A stretch of 23,874 nucleotides of DNA, taken from NCBI GenBank assembly GCA_049973735.1, contig JBMFJL010000004.1:1-23874 (forward strand), in the 5' to 3' direction. This document shows, piece by piece, positions 1,922 through 23,500 of the stretch. Origin of the DNA: Nanopusillaceae archaeon (GTDB lineage: Archaea > Nanobdellota > Nanobdellia > Nanobdellales > Nanobdellaceae). Numbering within the stretch: position 1 is the first letter of the stretch; every line of letters begins with the position of its first letter. The notes under the pieces were generated by a model. It was not told where the DNA came from. It saw nothing but the letters and a program-made list of their open reading frames with translations, and searched no databases. The position numbers and the translations under genes are program-made.

Positions 1922-2674
1922 TTACTGAAGGTTGGTAATCTTAAAATAATTCAATATCTCTCTTTTCATTATGTTTTTGATTTCTGTAGATTTATCTAAT
2001 GCTAATTTTAATGCCTCTCTCAGTTCACTAGTCTTTATTTCTCCATCTAACTGAATAGAAGTAAATTTTTTTTCAGAAGGGATGATAGCAACGGGTATAT
2101 CTGTTGCCCTACCCTCCCCATAATAATTTATATATTTACTTTTTTCAGGATCATTTTTTAATTTTTCAGAATCATAATCTTCTTCAAATTTGTTTAAATC
2201 TACTACAATTCTTTCTCCAACTTTTCCAACTGCAACAGCTACTACTAGATCTTTCATTGGAATTCCCGCCAATGCTAATGCCAATGATGTAGCATTTATA
2301 CTTGCAGTTCTTGTTCCCGCATCAGCATTTAATATTTCTATATATACATCTATGATACTTCCTGGTAATTCTTCTAAAAATAAGGCAGGCTCTAATGCTC
2401 TTTTTATTACTCTAGATAGTTCTATTTCTCTCCTACCGGGTGCTGGCTTTTTTCTTTCTGGTACAGAAAATGTTAGCATATTATATCTTACCCTTAAGAA
2501 TGCTTTATCATAATCAATCGACATTTTTGATGGTTTTGGTCCATATACTGCTGCTAGAGCTACTGTATCACCAAAAGAAAATATTGCAGAACCTTTGGAA
2601 TTTTCTAGTGGATTTAGTTTAATATTTATTTTTCTTAGTTCGTTATATTCTCTTCCATCAAATCTTTTCATCAT
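1922..2674 (-). CDS. rrp41: Exosome complex exonuclease Rrp41 (RNase PH domain)
   Basis: FDGREYNELRKINIKLNPLENSKGSAIFSFGDTVALAAVYGPKP, LRVRYNMLTFSVPERKKPAPGRREIELSRVIKRALEP and IDVYIEILNADAGTRTASINATSLALALAGIPMKDL track Sulfolobus Rrp41 almost position by position. It lies directly downstream of rrp4 with a 1-nt gap. Confidence 0.92.
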   Translation of the reverse strand: MMKRFDGREYNELRKINIKLNPLENSKGSAIFSFGDTVALAAVYGPKPSKMSIDYDKAFLRVRYNMLTFSVPERKKPAPGRREIELSRVIKRALEPALFLEELPGSIIDVYIEILNADAGTRTASINATSLALALAGIPMKDLVVAVAVGKVGERIVVDLNKFEEDYDSEKLKNDPEKSKYINYYGEGRATDIPVAIIPSEKKFTSIQLDGEIKTSELREALKLALDKSTEIKNIMKREILNYFKITNLQ

Positions 2675-2675
2675 C

Positions 2676-3308
2676 TTAAAATAAATCTTTTTCTATAATT
2701 TCTTTAACCTTTTCGGTCAAGCCTTTTTTATAGGAGTTTTCTTCTATAAACTTTATTATCTTTATTGCTTTTAATATGTTTCTTTCATCACCATTTAAAT
2801 ACACTCTACCATTTTTTCCAACAATTATCTCTATTTTTAAACCTTCTTTTATTAAATTGATCATCGAATTGTTTTTTCCGATTATTCTGGGTAATTTAAC
2901 CGGGTCCACATTTATTATCAATCCATCATTCAATTTTTTCTTTTTTTTTACAGCCAAATTTATTATCTTATTTTTAGTTACTTTTATTATTTGTACTAGA
3001 ATAAAATCTCCATAAGTAAATATGTCGTTTGGATCTATAATTTCTTCTTGTCCCAATAATTTTAATGCTAAAAATCCTAAATATGGCGAGTTTATATCTA
3101 CGAACCACCCGTTTGGGAGAACATCAATGACTCTTCCTATTACAATATCATTTAGTTGTGGTATATAAAATCCTGATAACCTAGTAATTTTCATTTTACC
3201 CACTTTATTTTCTAATAATCCAATGTACTTTGAATAATAATTATTGTCTTTTTCATAAGAATTTTCAACTTTTTTATTACCAACAGGATCACCAGGTATT
3301 ACTATCAT
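2676..3308 (-). CDS. rrp4: Exosome RNA-binding subunit Rrp4 (N-terminal domain + S1 + KH)
   Basis: IVIPGDPVG N-terminal motif. S1-like YIPQLNDIVIGRVIDVLPNGWFVDINSPYLGFL. KH-like PVKLPRIIGKNNSMINLIKEGLKIEIIVGKNGRVYL. Conserved rrp4-rrp41 order. Confidence 0.9.
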   Translation of the reverse strand: MIVIPGDPVGNKKVENSYEKDNNYYSKYIGLLENKVGKMKITRLSGFYIPQLNDIVIGRVIDVLPNGWFVDINSPYLGFLALKLLGQEEIIDPNDIFTYGDFILVQIIKVTKNKIINLAVKKKKKLNDGLIINVDPVKLPRIIGKNNSMINLIKEGLKIEIIVGKNGRVYLNGDERNILKAIKIIKFIEENSYKKGLTEKVKEIIEKDLF

Positions 3309-7501: not shown

Positions 7502-8329
7502 GTGGAGGAAAGATTTGTAAGAGTGACAGATATAACAGATTATTTATTTTGTCCTAGAAAGGTTTATCTTAAAAGAGTTTTGGGTTATGAGGAAGAAACA
7601 AATGAAAAAAAGATATTTGGATCGATAGTACATAACATTTTGGATAATTTAAATGAGAGGGAATATGAAATTGTCTATAATATAAAGGAAAATAGAGGAT
7701 ACGAATATGTAAAAAAATTATATGAAGATTTTGTTTTAGAATTAATTGATAAATCTATAAAAAAATTTGAGAAAGATATAAAAAAACTAAATATAGATGT
7801 GGAAAAAATTAAATTTCAAGTATTTTCTTATATATATAAAGAAATAGAAGATAGATCGAAAAATATATTTAATTTCATGAGCGAAAATGATTTATATGGT
7901 ATAGAGTTATGGTATTCTTTGGAACCAAAGATTTTGACAGAATTCGATACAATATCTAGAAAGTATAATATAATTGGTAGAGTTGATAGAATAGAAAAAT
8001 ATAATAAAAGAAAAGAAATTATTCCATATGAAATAAAATCGGGATTTTTCAGTAGAGATCATATAACTCAAATATATACCTATTATTTATTGTTGAAAGA
8101 TGAGTTCCCAGATTATAAAATATACAAAGGATATATCTATTATGTTAAAGATAATAAAAAATTTGAAATAGAATTTACAAATAAAAACGAGATAAAAAGA
8201 ATTTTGGAAATAAAGGATAAAATATTAGATATGATTGAAAGTGAGAAAGATCCGGGAAAAGTATATAAAGAAAAATGCCAAAAATGTGTATTTTACAATG
8301 TTTGTTGGAAAAATGGAAATAAAAATTGA
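7502..8329 (+). CDS. Cas4-family / RecB-like PD-(D/E)xK exonuclease with a 4-Cys Fe-S motif (stand-alone, GTG start)
   Basis: N-terminal ITDYLFCPRKVYLKRVLG. Nuclease core GRVDRIEKY...IIPYEIKSG. QIYTYYLLL (QxxxY). C-terminal CQKCVFYNVCW (Cx2Cx5C). This is the classic Cas4/DUF83 layout. Confidence 0.82.
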   Translation: MEERFVRVTDITDYLFCPRKVYLKRVLGYEEETNEKKIFGSIVHNILDNLNEREYEIVYNIKENRGYEYVKKLYEDFVLELIDKSIKKFEKDIKKLNIDVEKIKFQVFSYIYKEIEDRSKNIFNFMSENDLYGIELWYSLEPKILTEFDTISRKYNIIGRVDRIEKYNKRKEIIPYEIKSGFFSRDHITQIYTYYLLLKDEFPDYKIYKGYIYYVKDNKKFEIEFTNKNEIKRILEIKDKILDMIESEKDPGKVYKEKCQKCVFYNVCWKNGNKN

Positions 8330-9107
8330 CATAACTAAAAGTATATACGAGAATATTAACGATATTTATGAAAAAATTAAAGAATTAAAAAGAAAAAAGG
8401 AAAAAATAGAAGAAGTAATTAAAGAATTGGAAAATAAATTGAATAATATTGAAGAAAATATAAAAATTGAAAAGAAAAAAGAAGAAAAAAAGAGAAATAA
8501 AAAATGGTATGAAAAGTTCAGATGGATGATAACTTCTAATAATTTTCTTTTGATTGCTGGTAGGGACAGCAAGCAGAATGAACTATTAATAAATAAATAT
8601 TTAGAGGAAAACGATTTAGTATTTCATGCAGATATAGTCGGATCTCCGTTTGGTATATTAAAAAATGGGAAAAATGCAAAAGAGCAAGATATATATGAAG
8701 CAGCGAAATTCGTTGGATCATATTCTAGAGCATGGAAAATCAAATTATCCTCAGTAGACGTATATTATGTATATCCTGAACAAGTGTCTAAAACTGCACC
8801 ATCTGGCATGTATATTAAAAAAGGGTCATTTATGATATATGGAAAGAGGAATTATATAAAAGTAAAGCTTGAAATTGCATTGGGATTTGAAGAATATACT
8901 GTAATTCCTGGTATACCGGAGAATATAGTCAACAGGTATAAAAGTTATGTTATACTAGTCCCTGGAAATAAAAAACCATTGGAAATTGCCAAAGAATTAA
9001 GTAAAGTTTTTAAAGTTGATGTAGAAGATATAATAAGATATCTTCCTGGTGACAGTGATATATACTTATTGCAGGATGGTAACATTTATAAAGATTACCG
9101 TCAATGA
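8313..9107 (+). CDS. NFACT-R (DUF814) protein, equal to the C-terminal half of the archaeal NEMF/Rqc2 ribosome-quality-control homologue (coiled coil + NFACT-R only)
   Basis: KWYEKFRWMITSNNFLLIAGRDSKQNELLINKYLEENDLVFHADIVGSPFGILK, AAKFVGSYSRAWKIKLSSVDVYYVYPEQVSKTAPSGMYIKKGSFMIYGKRNYIKV. The ORF is open from 8235. ATG 8313 (MEIKIDITK...) cuts the overlap with the upstream gene from 95 to 17 nt. Confidence 0.8.
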   Translation: MEIKIDITKSIYENINDIYEKIKELKRKKEKIEEVIKELENKLNNIEENIKIEKKKEEKKRNKKWYEKFRWMITSNNFLLIAGRDSKQNELLINKYLEENDLVFHADIVGSPFGILKNGKNAKEQDIYEAAKFVGSYSRAWKIKLSSVDVYYVYPEQVSKTAPSGMYIKKGSFMIYGKRNYIKVKLEIALGFEEYTVIPGIPENIVNRYKSYVILVPGNKKPLEIAKELSKVFKVDVEDIIRYLPGDSDIYLLQDGNIYKDYRQ

Positions 9108-11095
9108 TTATTATTATGAACCAATCAGGCAAACTATTTAAAAGGTTAGTATTTTTGTTACCGTTATTAGTAGTAGCAGCAACAGGAGTACATGCAGAGA
9201 AAATAATAATAGAGCCAATGACAGCAAATCTATTAGCAAACTATATAGATAATGGATTAACATTTACAGTAAAGTTGTTCGATGTAAATGGCACACCAAT
9301 AGAGTCAGATTTGTACTTTAATATATATGATCAGAATGGACAATTAATTTATCAGTACTATAGATCAATTGATGTATCATGCTGCATTGTACAACCAAAT
9401 AAATCAGGAGGTGCACCATGTGTATATCAAATACCAGTAAATCCACAAGTTTTACAACAATTATTACAGACACAAAGAACAGAATGTGGCAATAATTATT
9501 ACTGTTCTACATCTACACCATCAAATTCATTTAGAGTAGAAGCAAAAGTAGCATTAGTATACAAAGGAGGAAATGTAACTACTGTAACTAATTCTTCAGT
9601 TTATAACTTAGTATATGTACCATACAATTTATCATTACAAATGATACAATTACCACCAACAATTTCAAAACAATACTTATTACAATATGGATTGAACTTA
9701 CAATCAATAGTATATCTACAGAATTCTGAAACAAGAATACAGAAATCAACATTGATGGTAACATTGTATGATTCAACAGGTAAGATATTATATCAAACAC
9801 AACAAGATGTAAGATTGACTCCAGGAGAAAACTTATTAACAGTTCCAGTATCTGGAGGATATTTTGCAGATGTATCTGGAAAGGTATTTGTAGAAGAGCA
9901 ATTAACAATAGTATTAGTCAATGGAAAGGTATTGACAGATAAAAAGACAGGATACTTCTATGTATCTGATAATCAATTTGGAGGAGCATTAGAATTAATG
10001 TCAATATCACCAGATTTCACAAAAATGACAAACTTAGAACCAAATAAATTCTATACAGTACAATTATTATTCAATAATCCATCGAGAGTATCATTAACAG
10101 CAGCAGTTCAATTGTTAGTATATGATCAATATGGAAACATAGTAGTAAATCAAAAGTCCTCAAATACAATAGGATCAAACCAACAAGGATCCGTATTTGT
10201 ACCATTCAGTACATATGGTTTAAAACCAGGATACTACCTATTAAAATTATACATATACCAGAATGATGCATTAGTAGATCAAAGAGAATATACAGTAACA
10301 GTAAATGCAGATTCTATAAATGCAGTAAGAGTATTAAGAGTAGATTTGAATACATTTGATGTAAAGCCAGGATCATTCATAAAATTATATGTATACTTAA
10401 AGAGCAACTTACCAATGGATGTACAAGTAACACCAACAGTAATGTCAAAAGAATTAAACCTATATCAGCAATTATCTACAATAACATTATCTCCAAACTA
10501 TGAAACACAATTGCCAGTAGTAATATATATACCAGCAGGATTGAAAGCAGGATATTATCCAGTTAAATTAGTATTTGACTACAATGGAGTAAGACAAGAA
10601 TACACATATGAATTATATGTAAATGGAACAGTACCAGTTTATTATCCAGTAAAGGCAGCATTAATTGGACCATCTGTAGTAGGAACAAATACAACATTTG
10701 ACATAGTAATAGTATCAAATTCAACACAAATATATACAGTAGATGTTTATCTAGATGTTGATGGTGGATATGCAATGCCAAGCCAAGCAAGAGTACAAAT
10801 AGGAGGATATTACTCTGAAAAAATACCAGTAAATATAACAGCAACAAGCTCAAATGTAACAGTAAAGGTTAGAGTAGTAAATGCAGATACAGGAGAAGAG
10901 TTGTATACATTTACACAATCATTACAAGGACAACCAGCACAAAGGATAACAACACAACAAGCAACACCAGATTTGTTCAGAGGAATAACATTCTGGATAC
11001 TAGTAGTAATAGCATTAGTAATAATAGGATTAATAATATATGAATCAAGAAGAAGAAAAGGAAAAGAAAAGAAAGGTAAAGAAGTAGAAGAATAA
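9104..11095 (+). CDS. Secreted, C-terminally membrane-anchored surface (S-layer-like) glycoprotein candidate with repeated beta-sandwich-like modules
   Basis: Signal peptide LFKRLVFLLPLLVVAATGVHA/EK. C-terminal TM ITFWILVVIALVIIGLIIY followed by RRRKGKEKKGKEVEE. Many N-x-S/T sequons. Recurring motif hhhh-[YF]-D-x-x-G-x-hh-Y (VKLFDVNGT, YFNIYDQNGQLIYQ, MVTLYDSTGKILYQ, QLLVYDQYGNIVV, VRVVNADTGEELY). Codon choice (cca/gta/aca/gca/caa) resembles the EF-2 gene. Confidence 0.7.
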   Translation: MIIIMNQSGKLFKRLVFLLPLLVVAATGVHAEKIIIEPMTANLLANYIDNGLTFTVKLFDVNGTPIESDLYFNIYDQNGQLIYQYYRSIDVSCCIVQPNKSGGAPCVYQIPVNPQVLQQLLQTQRTECGNNYYCSTSTPSNSFRVEAKVALVYKGGNVTTVTNSSVYNLVYVPYNLSLQMIQLPPTISKQYLLQYGLNLQSIVYLQNSETRIQKSTLMVTLYDSTGKILYQTQQDVRLTPGENLLTVPVSGGYFADVSGKVFVEEQLTIVLVNGKVLTDKKTGYFYVSDNQFGGALELMSISPDFTKMTNLEPNKFYTVQLLFNNPSRVSLTAAVQLLVYDQYGNIVVNQKSSNTIGSNQQGSVFVPFSTYGLKPGYYLLKLYIYQNDALVDQREYTVTVNADSINAVRVLRVDLNTFDVKPGSFIKLYVYLKSNLPMDVQVTPTVMSKELNLYQQLSTITLSPNYETQLPVVIYIPAGLKAGYYPVKLVFDYNGVRQEYTYELYVNGTVPVYYPVKAALIGPSVVGTNTTFDIVIVSNSTQIYTVDVYLDVDGGYAMPSQARVQIGGYYSEKIPVNITATSSNVTVKVRVVNADTGEELYTFTQSLQGQPAQRITTQQATPDLFRGITFWILVVIALVIIGLIIYESRRRKGKEKKGKEVEE

Positions 11096-11098
11096 GGT

Positions 11099-11119
11099 CT
11101 TTATTTTTTATCTGTTTTT
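11099..11119 (+). terminator. Oligo-T archaeal terminator after the surface-protein gene
   Basis: ctttattttttatctgttttt lies immediately after the TAA at 11093-11095. T-runs of this kind are the usual archaeal termination signal. Confidence 0.45.
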
Positions 11120-11161
11120 AAAATTTCATCATTTTTCAGCCTGGGACGGTTTCTTCATGAT

Positions 11162-11217
11162 TGTACCCCTGCCAACTCTACCTTTTCATTAGATCGAAGG
11201 TAACCCTCGGCAGGGGC
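11162..11217 (-). ncRNA. Candidate single-hairpin archaeal H/ACA box guide sRNA
   Basis: Minus-strand RNA: GCCCCUGCC-GAGGGU-UACCUU-CGAUCUAAUGAA-AAGGUA-GAGUU-GGCAGGGGU-ACA. That is a 9-bp GC-rich lower stem, an internal loop (6+5 nt pocket), a 6-bp upper stem, and an apical loop with tandem G.A/A.G (K-loop-like, GAUCUAAUGA). ACA follows the lower stem directly, 14 nt from the upper stem. It is the only GC-rich island in a 182-nt AT-rich spacer between convergent genes. Confidence 0.6.
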
Positions 11218-11277
11218 ATTATTTTAAATTATATTAAAATTTAATATTACTTATTTATTTAAAACTTTTTATTTTGA

Positions 11278-11958
11278 TTACTCTAAATGAGCCTTTTTAA
11301 TTATATACTCAGCATAATTTTTTTCTACTCTAATTTCATATTCATCAATAACAATTTCTTTTTTAAATAATGGTTGATATAATACGAATGTTTCATATTC
11401 TCCACCTTCTCCAACCAAGTTTATTTTGTATTTTTTATTATAGTCTATTAGTTTGTTCAGAATGTTTTTATCAAAAATCTTCCCAAGGATACTAATATCT
11501 AAAGGATAAGCATACCAGCCGGTTATTATAAATTTAAAATTATTTCTTAATAATTCATTTAAGTATTCTATTTCATCCTTTAACCATAGAGGATTAAAAC
11601 ACGATAAGTTTAGCTTTTTACATATTTTTTGGAATCTTGTTGCTTGATATTCTGATCTTATTGCTCCGGTAACTACTCCTTCAATTTTATATTCTTCTTT
11701 CAAATATTCTAATGCATTTTCAAGCGTTTTTTCTTCATCAAGATCGCTATGAAATATTTCTATTGGAATTTCTAGGGCTTCTGCCTGTAATCTAGTATAT
11801 TCATGGTTTATATAATGATATAAATAACTCTCACTATTTTTAGGTACAATATTTAATAAAACTTTAATTTTATGAGATTTTGACGCTATATATAAAGAAT
11901 AATTTGAGTCTTTTCCACCAGAATATAAAACTGCTAAGTTCATCCTAAAATTATCCAA
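11278..11958 (-). CDS. dph6: Diphthine-ammonia ligase (Dph6 / MJ0570-type PP-loop ATPase). The likely true start is ATG 11943, an ATGA overlap with the upstream stop.
   Basis: MNLAVLYSGGKDS (PP-loop SGGKDS), VVTGAIRSEYQ, LWLKDE, VGEGGEYETFVL. These are characteristic motifs of the diphthamide synthetase family. Confidence 0.85.
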   Translation of the reverse strand: MDNFRMNLAVLYSGGKDSNYSLYIASKSHKIKVLLNIVPKNSESYLYHYINHEYTRLQAEALEIPIEIFHSDLDEEKTLENALEYLKEEYKIEGVVTGAIRSEYQATRFQKICKKLNLSCFNPLWLKDEIEYLNELLRNNFKFIITGWYAYPLDISILGKIFDKNILNKLIDYNKKYKINLVGEGGEYETFVLYQPLFKKEIVIDEYEIRVEKNYAEYIIKKAHLE

Positions 11959-18509: not shown

Positions 18510-19838
18510 TTATACAATAAATATTTTTCTCTGATGATCTTCAACAAAGAAGATATCCTCTCCCAATGTATATCCCATGCTAGATACTATATTATAGTAT
18601 GAAGCTTTTTTGTTTATATCTCCATGGTTTGGAATAATATACTCTGGATTAAGCATCTTTATCAACATTTTGTGATCTTGTGCCTTAGCATGTCCAGATA
18701 CATGTACATCTTTTATGATAGATGCTTTTTTCCTTTTTAATCTTTCTTCTAGTATTTTTCTATTTGCTTCATTTATTGGATGTGGAACTACAGTATTTGC
18801 AAATATTACAGTTGTATCTTCCAGATTAAATTTTATATCTCCTCTTGCGATTCTATCAAGTATAGATCCTGGTTCTCCTTGATGACCTGTACAAACTACA
18901 ATGTACTCCTCCTTGTTTTTTTCAACCCTCTCAAATACTTTTTTATAATCTCTAGGATCTCCGTAAATTTCTGCTTCTGAAGAAAAATTAACCAAACCAA
19001 TTTCTTCAGCAGCTCTAATATATCTTAATAAACTTCTCCCTACAAAAACTACTTTCCTATTCATTTCTTTTGCCAAATCAATTATACTTTTCAATCTTGC
19101 GATATGGGAGGAAAATGTAGTAATAAAGATACCTTTAGTATCTATAGATCTTAGTACATCATATAACATATATTTTTCGATGATTTCTGATTGTGTCTTA
19201 GATTCTTCATCAGCTCTAGTAGTTTCTGTTATTAATAATAAAACATCTTCATTTCCTATTTCCTTTAATTTCTTATAATCTGGTCTTTTTCCAAGTAATG
19301 GAAAATTATCAAACTTAAAATCACCAGAAAATATTATATGACCTTTTTTAGTTATTATATCTATCATTAGTGATTGTGGTATTGAATGTGTCATATTAAT
19401 AAATCTAATTTTTATATTTTCTGAAATTTCAACTGTAGAATTTGGAGATATTTTCTTTAAATCATTTGGTAATATTATTCCATATTCTTTTTCTTGCATT
19501 TTAACTAGTTCTATTGTATATGGAGATCCGTATATAGGTACATTATATTTTGGTGCAATGAAATTTACTGCTCCAATATGATCTAGATGTCCATGGGTTA
19601 ATACAATAGCTTTTACTTTATTTTTATATTCTTCGAGTATACTATCGTTTGGAATTATATCTAAATCCAATAATTCTTTTATTGGTTTATTTATGAAATC
19701 TTCTCTTTCACCAAATTGCGATATTTTATCAACATTTAATCCTATATCTATTATTATAATTTCATCATCAATTCTAATTGCGCTCATGTTTTTTCCAATA
19801 TACGAATATCCTCCTATTGGTATTAATTCTATTTCCAT
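18510..19838 (-). CDS. rnj: Archaeal RNase J (beta-CASP metallo-beta-lactamase 5'-3' exoribonuclease)
   Basis: MEIELIPIGGYSYIGKNMSAIRI, VLTHGHLDHIGA (HxHxDH), FSGDFKFD, VVCTGHQGEP, VHVSGHA. About 440 aa, typical of the compact archaeal RNase J. Confidence 0.88.
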   Translation of the reverse strand: MEIELIPIGGYSYIGKNMSAIRIDDEIIIIDIGLNVDKISQFGEREDFINKPIKELLDLDIIPNDSILEEYKNKVKAIVLTHGHLDHIGAVNFIAPKYNVPIYGSPYTIELVKMQEKEYGIILPNDLKKISPNSTVEISENIKIRFINMTHSIPQSLMIDIITKKGHIIFSGDFKFDNFPLLGKRPDYKKLKEIGNEDVLLLITETTRADEESKTQSEIIEKYMLYDVLRSIDTKGIFITTFSSHIARLKSIIDLAKEMNRKVVFVGRSLLRYIRAAEEIGLVNFSSEAEIYGDPRDYKKVFERVEKNKEEYIVVCTGHQGEPGSILDRIARGDIKFNLEDTTVIFANTVVPHPINEANRKILEERLKRKKASIIKDVHVSGHAKAQDHKMLIKMLNPEYIIPNHGDINKKASYYNIVSSMGYTLGEDIFFVEDHQRKIFIV

Positions 19839-21846: not shown

Positions 21847-23451
21847 ATGAAAAAGATTGCATTTATATCTCAGGAATTTTCCATAGAAAAGTTACCAACG
21901 TATGCGGGTGGATTGGGAATACTGGCAGGAGACCTTTTATATTCATCAAATGATCTAAAATATCCTATATACGGGATAACTTTTGTAAATAAAAATGGTT
22001 ATGGTTATTATGAGATAAAGGGAAAGGAAATAATATATAATGAGGAAAGTTATGATCCTATAGAGTATTTTTTAGAAGTAGAAGATACCTTTTATATAGA
22101 TTTAAAAGGAAAAAAAATATACTTTAAAGTTTGGAGATATAATTTACCATATTCTAATTTATTTTTATTTGATACAGATATGCCAAAGAATGATCCACAA
22201 ATTAGAAAATTAACTGGTAGATTGTATTATGAAGAAAGTCAGGAAGAGAGATTGTTGAAGGATTTATTATTGGGTCTAGGTGCGTTGGAATTCTTCGATA
22301 AAATTGGTATAGAAATAAATAAATATCATCTAAATGAGTCGCATGGAGGATTTCTGGCAATAGAATTATACAAAAGATATAAAAATATAGAAGAAGTTAG
22401 GAAAAGAATAATATTTACGACACATTCAATAATTGCTGGTCACGATTCATTTGATTATAATTTAGTAGAAAAATATTATGACATACCAAATGAAATAAAG
22501 TATTTATCTCCAGAAAAATTAAATTTAACAAAAATATTATTGAATTTGGCTGGATTTAAAAATGCAGTATCTTATAAACATAAAGTAATAACTGAGAAAG
22601 TATTTGGTGTAGAATTAGAATATATAACTAATGGTGTAAATCACATAAGATGGACAGATAGAAAGATAAAGATGTTATATGATACATATTTACCTGGTTG
22701 GAGAGATGAACCTTCAAAGTTATCTTATGCGCAAATAATAGATAGATCCCAATTCATTAAAATAAAAAATATGTTAAGGAAGGAATTAATAGATTATATA
22801 AATGTAAATGCATATTTAAATAAAGAATTTGAAGAAGATAGAATAATATTAACTGTTAAAAGAAGATTAGCAGAATATAAAAGATTTCATATGTTATTGT
22901 GGAGATTAGAAAGATTGGAAGAATTAAATAGAAAATATAGAATACAGTTCATATTATCTGGATCTTTCCATCCAAAAGATGAATTTACAAAAAATACAAT
23001 AAAATGGATCGTAGATATAATGTCAACTTTGAATTTACCAGTTGGATTGTTATTAAGGAGAGGATATGAACAGGAAAAAATAATATTATCTGGAACTGAT
23101 TTGTTTTTACACATTCCAAGACCACCATTTGAGGCATCTGGTACTTCATGGATGAGGGCAGGAATTAATGGAACTCCTACATTATTTTCAAGAGATGGTT
23201 CTCCACTAGAAATAATAATTGATGATTATAATGGATGGTTTTTTGGAGAAAATAATTATGATATAAATAGAAATACTGATGAAGAAGATGTAAAAGACTT
23301 CTATAATAAATTAGATTATATATTGAATCTTTACAGAAACAATTATAACAAATATATAGATATATCTATAAATGCTATAAAGACAATTGGACCTTTGTTT
23401 AATTCTCATAGGTGTTTGCTAGAATATATACATAGGGCATATGAGAAATGA
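21847..23451 (+). CDS. glgP: Short alpha-glucan (glycogen/maltodextrin) phosphorylase homologue, GT35, with substituted PLP-site lysines
   Basis: IAFISQEFSIEKLPTYAGGLGILAGDLL, HLNESHGGFLAIE, IFTTHSIIAGHDSF, ITNGVNHIRWT, KRRLAEYKR, PRPPFEASGTSWMRAGINGT. This matches the TIGR02094-type phosphorylase pattern, but with EASGTS-W-M-R where the family has M-K. Confidence 0.8.
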   Translation: MKKIAFISQEFSIEKLPTYAGGLGILAGDLLYSSNDLKYPIYGITFVNKNGYGYYEIKGKEIIYNEESYDPIEYFLEVEDTFYIDLKGKKIYFKVWRYNLPYSNLFLFDTDMPKNDPQIRKLTGRLYYEESQEERLLKDLLLGLGALEFFDKIGIEINKYHLNESHGGFLAIELYKRYKNIEEVRKRIIFTTHSIIAGHDSFDYNLVEKYYDIPNEIKYLSPEKLNLTKILLNLAGFKNAVSYKHKVITEKVFGVELEYITNGVNHIRWTDRKIKMLYDTYLPGWRDEPSKLSYAQIIDRSQFIKIKNMLRKELIDYINVNAYLNKEFEEDRIILTVKRRLAEYKRFHMLLWRLERLEELNRKYRIQFILSGSFHPKDEFTKNTIKWIVDIMSTLNLPVGLLLRRGYEQEKIILSGTDLFLHIPRPPFEASGTSWMRAGINGTPTLFSRDGSPLEIIIDDYNGWFFGENNYDINRNTDEEDVKDFYNKLDYILNLYRNNYNKYIDISINAIKTIGPLFNSHRCLLEYIHRAYEK

Positions 23452-23500
23452 TGAATTTGCCGAGTACTGATAAATGATGACTTTTACCCGTTCTGAGTCT
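23445..23500 (+). ncRNA. C/D box sRNA (2'-O-methylation guide), fully canonical
   Basis: C box AUGAUGA 23448-23454. 12-nt guide AUUUGCCGAGUA 23455-23466. D' CUGA 23467-23470. 3-nt spacer UAA. C' AUGAUGA 23474-23480. 12-nt guide CUUUUACCCGUU 23481-23492. D CUGA 23493-23496. The box spacing is exactly the archaeal 12/3/12 architecture. Confidence 0.88.

Follow-up and report, generated by a model that had tools for sequence, protein, structure and literature searches.

The stretch analysed here (the window) comprises 23,874 nucleotides of contig JBMFJL010000004.1 (assembly GCA_049973735.1). The element under study lies in a 182-nt spacer between two convergent open reading frames (ORFs), at 9104-11095 (+) and 11958-11278 (-). 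The same-strand upstream gene encodes diphthine-ammonia ligase, with aEF-2 beyond it, and the opposite convergent gene is a 663-aa ORF on the plus strand. In this spacer, the initial annotation had reported a GC-rich island likely to be an H/ACA pseudouridylation guide RNA. The island was confirmed, the GC content of the hairpin being 52.5% against 27% for the window. A C/D box small RNA (sRNA) follows it on the same strand, and the two modules together are interpreted below as a putative composite guide RNA. The window ligase shares 98% identity with a protein of 'Nanopusillaceae archaeon' and 69% with the ligase of Nanobdella aerobiophila; by its sequence, the window is assigned to a nanoarchaeon of the family Nanopusillaceae. 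No gene for any core protein of guide ribonucleoproteins (RNPs) was found within the window.

Read on the minus strand from 11217 to 11162, the island has the order GCCCCUGCC / GAGGGU / UACCUU / CGAUCUAAUGAA / AAGGUA / GAGUU / GGCAGGGGU / ACA. The strands GCCCCUGCC (11209..11217) and GGCAGGGGU (11165..11173) form a lower stem of 9 bp, the terminal pair of which is G.U. Above it lie the two strands of the presumed pseudouridylation pocket, GAGGGU on the 5' side (11203..11208) and GAGUU on the 3' side (11174..11178), followed by a 6-bp upper stem of UACCUU (11197..11202) and AAGGUA (11179..11184). The stem is capped by the 12-nt loop CGAUCUAAUGAA (11185..11196), which may be divided as C GA UCUAAU GA A and represents a K-loop, a candidate L7Ae site. 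The ACA box (11162..11164) is placed directly after the lower stem, 14 nt from the upper stem. Thus, the stems, the internal loop, the two GA dinucleotides and the ACA spacing given in the initial annotation were recovered base for base.

The minimum free energy of the fold was -29.4 kcal/mol, against -15.0 +/- 3.0 kcal/mol for dinucleotide shuffles (z = -4.85), and none of the 200 shuffles was equally stable. In all five species compared below, the folding energy beats that of the reverse complement by 2.7-8.3 kcal/mol, and the G.U pairs point to the same strand; the guide is therefore placed on the minus strand. Archaeal H/ACA RNAs are described as having a lower stem of 7-9 bp, an ACA 14-16 nt from the pocket-closing pair and 8-11 stacked layers up to the second G.A of the K-turn or K-loop, with 10 in the crystal structures (PMC4652768), and loop strands of 5-11 nt were used by Muller et al. 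(PMC2377435). The window hairpin has 9 bp with ACA immediately 3', kept in five species, and its spacing of 14 nt, made up of GAGUU (5 nt) and GGCAGGGGU (9 nt), is found in five of five. Six Watson-Crick pairs, one non-Watson-Crick pair (C.A, A.A or G.A) and two G.A pairs, whose sheared geometry is predicted only, add up to nine layers. The pocket strands of 6 and 5 nt are short, as had been cautioned from the outset, yet lie inside the 5-11 nt range. Since all of these structural features are present at the sequence level and the conservation is that of a guide, the hairpin is very probably a real single-hairpin archaeal H/ACA pseudouridylation guide RNA, and the original proposal of such a guide is thereby supported in silico in five species.

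The same composite was found in the same syntenic place, on the strand of the ligase, in four relatives: AP031373.1 (L001), Nanobdella aerobiophila AP019769.1 (L003), a metagenome-assembled genome (L006, identical in L007) and a JGI contig (L022). In the alignment of the five sequences (window, L001, L003, L006 and L022), 98.7% of the pair cells hold standard pairs, a share that falls to 37-55% on shifting the 3' partners 1-3 columns. All nine lower-stem pairs are kept in the five species, two of them by two-sided changes (CUGCC/GGCAG, CUAUC/GAUAG, CUACC/GGUGG). The third two-sided change (n = 3) concerns the pocket-closing pair of the upper stem, which is U-A, A-U or G.U and, in one species, A.A; the other five pairs of this stem are invariant. 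The pocket cores AGGGU and GAGU, both apical GA dinucleotides and the ACA are also invariant. Variable, in contrast, are the loop between the two GA (5-6 nt, differing in sequence and length), the base before the first GA (C, A or G, opposite an invariant A) and the outermost pocket bases, namely G or A on the 5' strand and, on the 3' strand, U except in one species, which has A. Covarying stems together with invariant pocket cores, GA dinucleotides and ACA are the pattern expected of a guide RNA. The conservation with compensatory stem changes that the initial annotation had made a test of its proposal was thus found in four relatives.

Look-ups of more distant ligase homologues gave no composite in L008/L009, L010/L011 and L023/L024, and the sequences of L021 and L025 end too early to tell. 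In L008/L009, whose ligase is 65% identical to that of the window, the same C/D RNA, AUGAAGA GGCUGUCCCAGU CUGA AAAA UGAUGA CAGAGAGACGAU CAGA, is solitary and lies at another locus, where the flank upstream is A/T-rich and lacks a hairpin. Genomes whose ligase has 69% or more identity to that of the window have the fusion, and the one at 65% does not. Because the C/D RNA stands alone in L008 and, as sRNA4, in Nanoarchaeum equitans, the fusion appears to be confined to a subclade within Nanopusillaceae.

A 175-aa GATase-like gene separates the ligase from the composite RNA in all four relatives (10663-11190 in L001), where it ends in a stop codon that touches or overlaps the hairpin's first base. 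Because the window holds only 60 nt at this place (11218-11277), without such a gene, the GATase-like gene has been lost from the window genome.

The C/D half, overlooked in the initial annotation, is a complete C/D box sRNA at 11158..11111 (-), beginning 3 nt after the ACA; it was read by eye and confirmed by script. The linker AUC (11159..11161), as read from the sequence, joins it to the hairpin. The layout is AUGAAGA-12-CUGA-4-UGAUGA-11-CAGA, with the box order, guides of ~12 nt and a C'/D' loop of 3-9 nt that characterise this class. The C box AUGAAGA (11152..11158), a nanoarchaeal variant of RUGAUGA, precedes the D' guide AACCGUCCCAGG (11140..11151) and the D' box CUGA (11136..11139). 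After a 4-nt loop, AAAA (11132-11135), come the C' box UGAUGA (11126..11131), the D guide AAUUUUAAAAA (11115..11125) and the D box CAGA (11111..11114), a CUGA variant that goes with the UGAAGA C box. The D' and C' boxes are invariant. A permissive Rfam scan (E <= 10) of 11050-11330 returned weak matches to the archaeal C/D families snoPyro_CD, sR9 and sR44, all below threshold (17.5 bits against 45).

The unusual boxes are themselves informative. In the window, L001, L003, L006, L008 and L022, the base at C-box position 4 changes in concert with that at D-box position 2, UGAAGA occurring with CAGA and UGAGGA with CUGA. The AUGAAGA-type C box is typical of the phylum, being found in 10 sRNAs of N. 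equitans. In the table of sRNAs from that organism (PMC3491384), a CAGA D box accompanies eight of the 10 UGAAGA sRNAs, as in the window, vs none of the 15 UGAUGA sRNAs. The covariation can be read as an A.A or G.U pair replacing the usual U.U beside the sheared pairs.

The D' guide points to the 23S P loop. On E. coli rrlH it forms 10 consecutive pairs (one G.U) with C2248-U2257 (CUGGGGCGGU), and the fifth base upstream of the D' box lies opposite G2251. The P loop was the best site of this guide both in E. coli 23S rRNA and in the two archaeal large-subunit (LSU) rRNA loci containing it (L013 and L017, described below). In relatives, the D' guide is AACCGUCCCAGU or UACCGUCCCAGU, vs AACCGUCCCAGG in the window; its core CCGUCCCAG recurs in all of the five species but Nanobdella (L003), which has CCAUGUCCCAG, with a 2-nt insertion. 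For sRNA4 of N. equitans (90898-90954), Randau 2012 (PMC3491384, supplementary table 2) listed the D' guide GGCUGUCCCAGG and the predicted target GCUGGmGGCGGCA in the P loop (G2330 of N. equitans 23S). The two guides, from the same phylum, have the core GUCCCAG in common, share the 3' end GUCCCAGG and are directed at the same P-loop G. Both sRNAs also carry identical box variants, AUGAAGA with CAGA. Based on these comparisons, the C/D half is the orthologue of sRNA4, and its D' guide is predicted to place a 2'-O-methylation on 23S G2251.

The D guide gives a less clear picture. The guides of relatives contain G/C (CAGAGAGACGAU, CGGAGAGACGACU, AGGAGAGACAAU and AAGGAGUAGCUA); that of the window, AAUUUUAAAAA, consists of A/U only. 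No convincing target was found for the D guides of the window and relatives, the window guide having no site above background. Within the archaeal LSU loci, the window guide was best complemented by CUUUUAAGGUA, located immediately 3' of helix 69 and adjoining the predicted H/ACA target, at a score that did not rise above the background for 11-mers. A target in the UUUUAAGG stretch beside helix 69 was considered; the score was within the background, and no claim is made for it. For the L001 guide CAGAGAGACGAU, a site in helix 81, which directly follows the P loop on its 3' side, was considered and rejected, the scan of genome contigs with ACTGGGGCGGTN{0,5}TCGTCTCTC having given one chance match, which is from Acidobacteriota and is not rRNA. 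In the Nanobdella composite, the D guide AAGGAGUAGCUA (L003 11279-11290) is that of N. equitans sRNA14 (AAGGAGUAGCUG), not that of sRNA4. Guides have been exchanged between sRNA families.

The pocket of the H/ACA hairpin predicts the target 5'-AACUC-U-N-ACCCU(C/U)-3'. Its 5' part resembles the universal loop of helix 69 of 23S rRNA (AACUAU at A1912-U1917 of E. coli) and its 3' part the 3' strand of the same helix. A metagenome scan with the pattern AACTNTNACCCTTNTAAGGTAGC, derived from the guide with position 1916 left open, returned eight LSU-like contigs, none of them assignable to Nanopusillaceae; a scan of viral contigs for the same helix 69 variant gave nothing. Three of the loci (L013, L017 and L020) are archaeal LSU rRNA (Rfam RF02540) in which helix 69 reads GGGGGU-AACUCUG-ACCCUU, with C at 1916. 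This sequence forms 11 Watson-Crick pairs with the pocket AAGGGU/GAGUU and 10 plus one G.U with GAGGGU/GAGUU, and it is the sole perfect pocket site in each of the three. In the alignment to rrlH, the target U coincides with E. coli U1917, which under full pairing occupies the canonical 15th position from the ACA. The target AACUC-U-N-ACCCUC predicted in the initial annotation thus finds its counterpart in 23S helix 69 of three metagenomic archaeal LSU rRNAs. More widely, four of the five 5'-side bases (AACU), the target U and A1919 belong to the common helix 69 loop, being present in E. coli, N. equitans and all eight metagenomic LSU loci. Pseudouridines 1915 and 1917 are universal, and in Haloferax and eukaryotes they are H/ACA-guided (PMC7075261). 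For the lineage of the window, we put the assignment of the pocket to U1917 at roughly two in three; the identity of the hairpin as an H/ACA RNA is rated considerably higher.

A comparison with N. equitans adds to this assignment. From the overlapping targets listed for its sRNA11 and sRNA22 (PMC3491384), its helix 69 can be reconstructed as GGGAG-UAACUGUAA-CUCUC, with G at 1916, so that position 1916 does not appear to be fixed in this phylum. The abundant H/ACA sRNA of N. equitans is its only H/ACA RNA, and the organism has a gene for a COG0130-type synthase (PMC3491384). The pocket of hairpin 2 of this RNA (AGAGUC / UGUUAG) complements ACUCUC and UAAC of its own helix 69, leaving UGUA unpaired. 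In other words, GAGAGU...GUUA complements helix 69 of N. equitans as GAGGGU...GAGUU complements an ACCCUC-type helix 69, and GAGAGU:ACUCUC there and GAGGGU:ACCCUC here look like co-variation of guide and target. This suggests that hairpin 2 may guide the pseudouridines of helix 69 and not the published RNAsnoop targets (23S U614 and 16S U796).

Based on the above results, we suggest, with a probability of about 0.78, that the minus strand at 11217..11111 encodes a composite guide RNA, in which an H/ACA hairpin (11217..11162) directed at U1917 of helix 69 is followed by a C/D sRNA (11158..11111) directed at G2251. Sequence and structure, the covariation-supported conservation, the strand, the complementarities of the guides and the orthology of the C/D half were established directly, whereas expression, protein binding, the exact helix 69 sequence of the lineage and the processing state are inferred. 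The two modules, 2-3 nt apart, would most likely be made as one transcript. It could start in the A/T-rich promoter-like stretch just upstream, or the RNA could lie within or at the tail of the upstream mRNA. The A/T-rich flank holds TATA-like strings, which are uninformative at 27% GC, and guide RNAs of archaea frequently lie in untranslated regions or overlap coding sequences (PMC3849170). Judging from the archaeal H/ACA RNPs that have been characterised, L7Ae would bind the K-loop, and Cbf5-Nop10-Gar1 would bind the lower stem of 9 bp together with the ACA box. The pocket strands would pair around U1917, GAGUU with AACUC (E. coli 1912-1916) and GAGGGU with ACCCU(C/U) of the 3' strand. The unpaired U1917, the 15th position from the ACA, would be isomerised to pseudouridine. 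The C/D module would assemble with L7Ae and Nop5-fibrillarin, the D' guide would anneal to the P loop, and G2251 would be 2'-O-methylated.

Like Pab21 of Pyrococcus abyssi, the composite probably occurs in an unprocessed form as well as split into separate guides. A more specific proposal, which we regard as possible and rather doubtful, is that the modules stay joined as one bifunctional particle. It would act on nascent 23S rRNA and make pseudouridine 1917 (helix 69) and Gm2251 (P loop), ~330 nt apart. Such a particle would have arisen in Nanopusillaceae when a P-loop C/D guide of the solitary kind seen in N. equitans and L008 became fused to a helix 69 H/ACA hairpin. If the modules do stay joined, the particle could hold domains IV and V together during folding, and its tandem arrangement would parallel, in archaea, the composite small Cajal-body RNAs (scaRNAs) of eukaryotes. 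In C/D-H/ACA scaRNAs such as U85, both guide domains are likewise carried on one RNA. The U85-type scaRNAs are located in the Cajal body, act on snRNAs and have the H/ACA part nested inside the C/D part, whereas the modules of the window RNA are in tandem and aimed at rRNA.

Several observations weigh against the composite with these two targets. As to the fold, in the free RNA two extra lower-stem pairs (GA/UU) are possible, which makes the internal loop smaller without substrate; the pocket is short, with 11 pairs in total, and two of its bases self-pair in this way. The shuffle control of covariation is weak with five sequences, 6 of 500 shuffles reaching the observed score. The pocket strand in L022 is GAGUA instead of GAGUU, and one guide pair is lost there. 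Rfam at gathering thresholds gave no matches in the window or in eight loci scanned along with it. The comparison with archaeal H/ACA models that the initial annotation had recommended went against it: in the permissive scan of 11050-11330, no H/ACA family, RF00065 included, matched the hairpin, and the thresholds of HgcE, HgcF and HgcG were not reached. The D guide of the window is probably degenerate or inactive. Concerning the target, the helix 69 variant was retrieved by a pattern derived from the guide, so that only C1916 and the archaeal LSU context count as independent evidence. In N. equitans, position 1916 is G and not C, and A or G there in the lineage of the window would put a mismatch beside the target U.

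These last points bear on the alternative that the hairpin is a genuine H/ACA guide with another target, in 16S rRNA, in a tRNA or elsewhere in the 23S rRNA of the lineage, which we consider unlikely. The complementarity was read on the rRNAs of other lineages. By chance alone, ~2-3% of shuffled 23S sequences contain a perfect site for an 11-pair pocket that allows G.U, and sites with one mismatch number ~0.4-0.7 per shuffled sequence. However, in the three archaeal LSU loci no other perfect site competes with helix 69, its U1917 stands at the canonical distance from the ACA, and the bases AACU, the target U and A1919 are those of the widely shared loop. The corresponding pocket that hairpin 2 of N. 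equitans has for its own helix 69 variant also speaks for the U1917 assignment. Alternatively, the hairpin could be a structured 5' extension of the C/D sRNA, providing an extra L7Ae K-loop or an element for processing or stability, with the ACA and the pocket being incidental. In its favour, the hairpin is found only in fusion with the C/D RNA, the relative L008 has the C/D RNA on its own, the internal loop partly closes in the free RNA, and Rfam does not recognise the hairpin. Yet a stability hairpin needs no invariant loop strands, no ACA at exactly 14 nt, no 9-bp stem and no nine-layer GA stem, all of which fall within the H/ACA rules, and it would not explain why the loop strands jointly complement a universal pseudouridylation site. 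Such an extension is, in our estimate, very improbable. Least credible of all, and close to negligible, is a termination or mRNA 3'-end hairpin serving the convergent genes for diphthine-ammonia ligase and the 663-aa ORF. It is suggested by the position between convergent ORFs, directly downstream of a same-strand gene, and by the upstream stop codon that abuts the hairpin in relatives. Against it, no U tract follows the hairpin on its 3' side, the C/D RNA being there instead, and the conserved loops, the ACA and the K-loop signature would be left unexplained. Moreover, termination in archaea relies on oligo-T and is not known to depend on hairpins.

Both H/ACA and C/D guides are already known in Nanoarchaeota, and the H/ACA-C/D tandem is already known in Pyrococcus. 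The closest architectural parallel to the composite is Pab21 of P. abyssi, or Pf1 of P. furiosus (RF00065, snoR9), in which a 5' single K-loop H/ACA hairpin and a 3' C/D RNA likewise form one transcription unit; forms of Pab21 with and without the C/D part were both seen in vivo (PMC2377435; PMC4652768). However, there is no detectable sequence or model similarity between snoR9 and the window RNA, RF00065 being unmatched at E <= 10. Pab21 guides 16S U891, unlike the predicted 23S U1917, and the C/D partner in the window is a P-loop guide. Because Pab21 belongs to Thermococcales and the window RNA to Nanoarchaeota, the tandem has probably arisen independently of Pab21.

The N. equitans RNAs differ from the composite in their arrangement. 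There, sRNA4 stands alone, with no hairpin in its 40-nt upstream flank, and the 159-nt H/ACA sRNA (NC_005213, 339411-339574), which has two hairpins, is encoded elsewhere in the genome. Randau 2012 (PMC3491384) does not describe an H/ACA-C/D hybrid in that organism. The pocket of hairpin 2 leaves UGUA unpaired (atypical UNUN) and has its ACA 16 nt away, in contrast to the canonical UN and 14 nt in the window. A similar case is stem-loop 2 of sR-h45 in Haloferax volcanii (PMC7075261), an archaeal H/ACA hairpin with ACA that also targets helix 69, at pseudouridines 1940 and 1942 (E. coli 1915 and 1917). In sR-h45, which consists of two stem-loops with K-turns, one pocket makes two pseudouridines with UAUG unpaired, the ACA being 17 and 19 nt from the targets; the window RNA, in contrast, combines a K-loop with a canonical pocket and has a single predicted target. 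Hairpin 2 of N. equitans would share with sR-h45 stem-loop 2 the atypical UNUN mode, which has been demonstrated for the latter (PMC7075261).

In the searchable literature, no paper linking Nanopusillus or Nanobdella with guide RNAs was found. With the composite, Nanopusillaceae would gain one H/ACA and one C/D guide with testable targets at helix 69 and the P loop, both functional sites of the ribosome that are conserved universally, and the cultivable species Nanobdella aerobiophila carries it. It would be the second, apparently independent, archaeal H/ACA-C/D tandem after Pyrococcus Pab21, and the fusion event can be placed in time inside the family. In a genome that is strongly reduced, a single short locus appears to serve two universally conserved modifications of the large subunit. 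This raises the question of how two RNP assembly pathways share one transcript with a linker of 2-3 nt.

Other RNA-related features were noted in the same data. A second complete C/D box sRNA is present at 23448-23497 (+) of the window, with the layout AUGAUGA AUUUGCCGAGUA CUGA UAA AUGAUGA CUUUUACCCGUU CUGA, and it overlaps the 3' end of a glycosyltransferase-like ORF (21847-23451). The D' guide of this sRNA is similar to the one in sRNA21 of N. equitans and forms 10 contiguous pairs with AACUCGGCAAA of the archaeal LSU loci; the best match of its D guide is AACGGAUAAAAG (E. coli 23S 2425-2436). At 1922-3308 (-), 18510-19838 (-) and 7502-8329 (+), the window also encodes exosome-like subunits and two nucleases; the former are an RNase PH domain protein and an Rrp4-like S1/KH protein, and the latter are of the RNase J/beta-CASP and the Cas4/Csa1-like PD-(D/E)XK types. 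In the peptidyl-transferase region (~2575-2590) of the archaeal LSU locus L013, C stands in place of E. coli A2503 and A in place of G2505 (GCUAUCGGCUU vs GAUGUCGGCUC).

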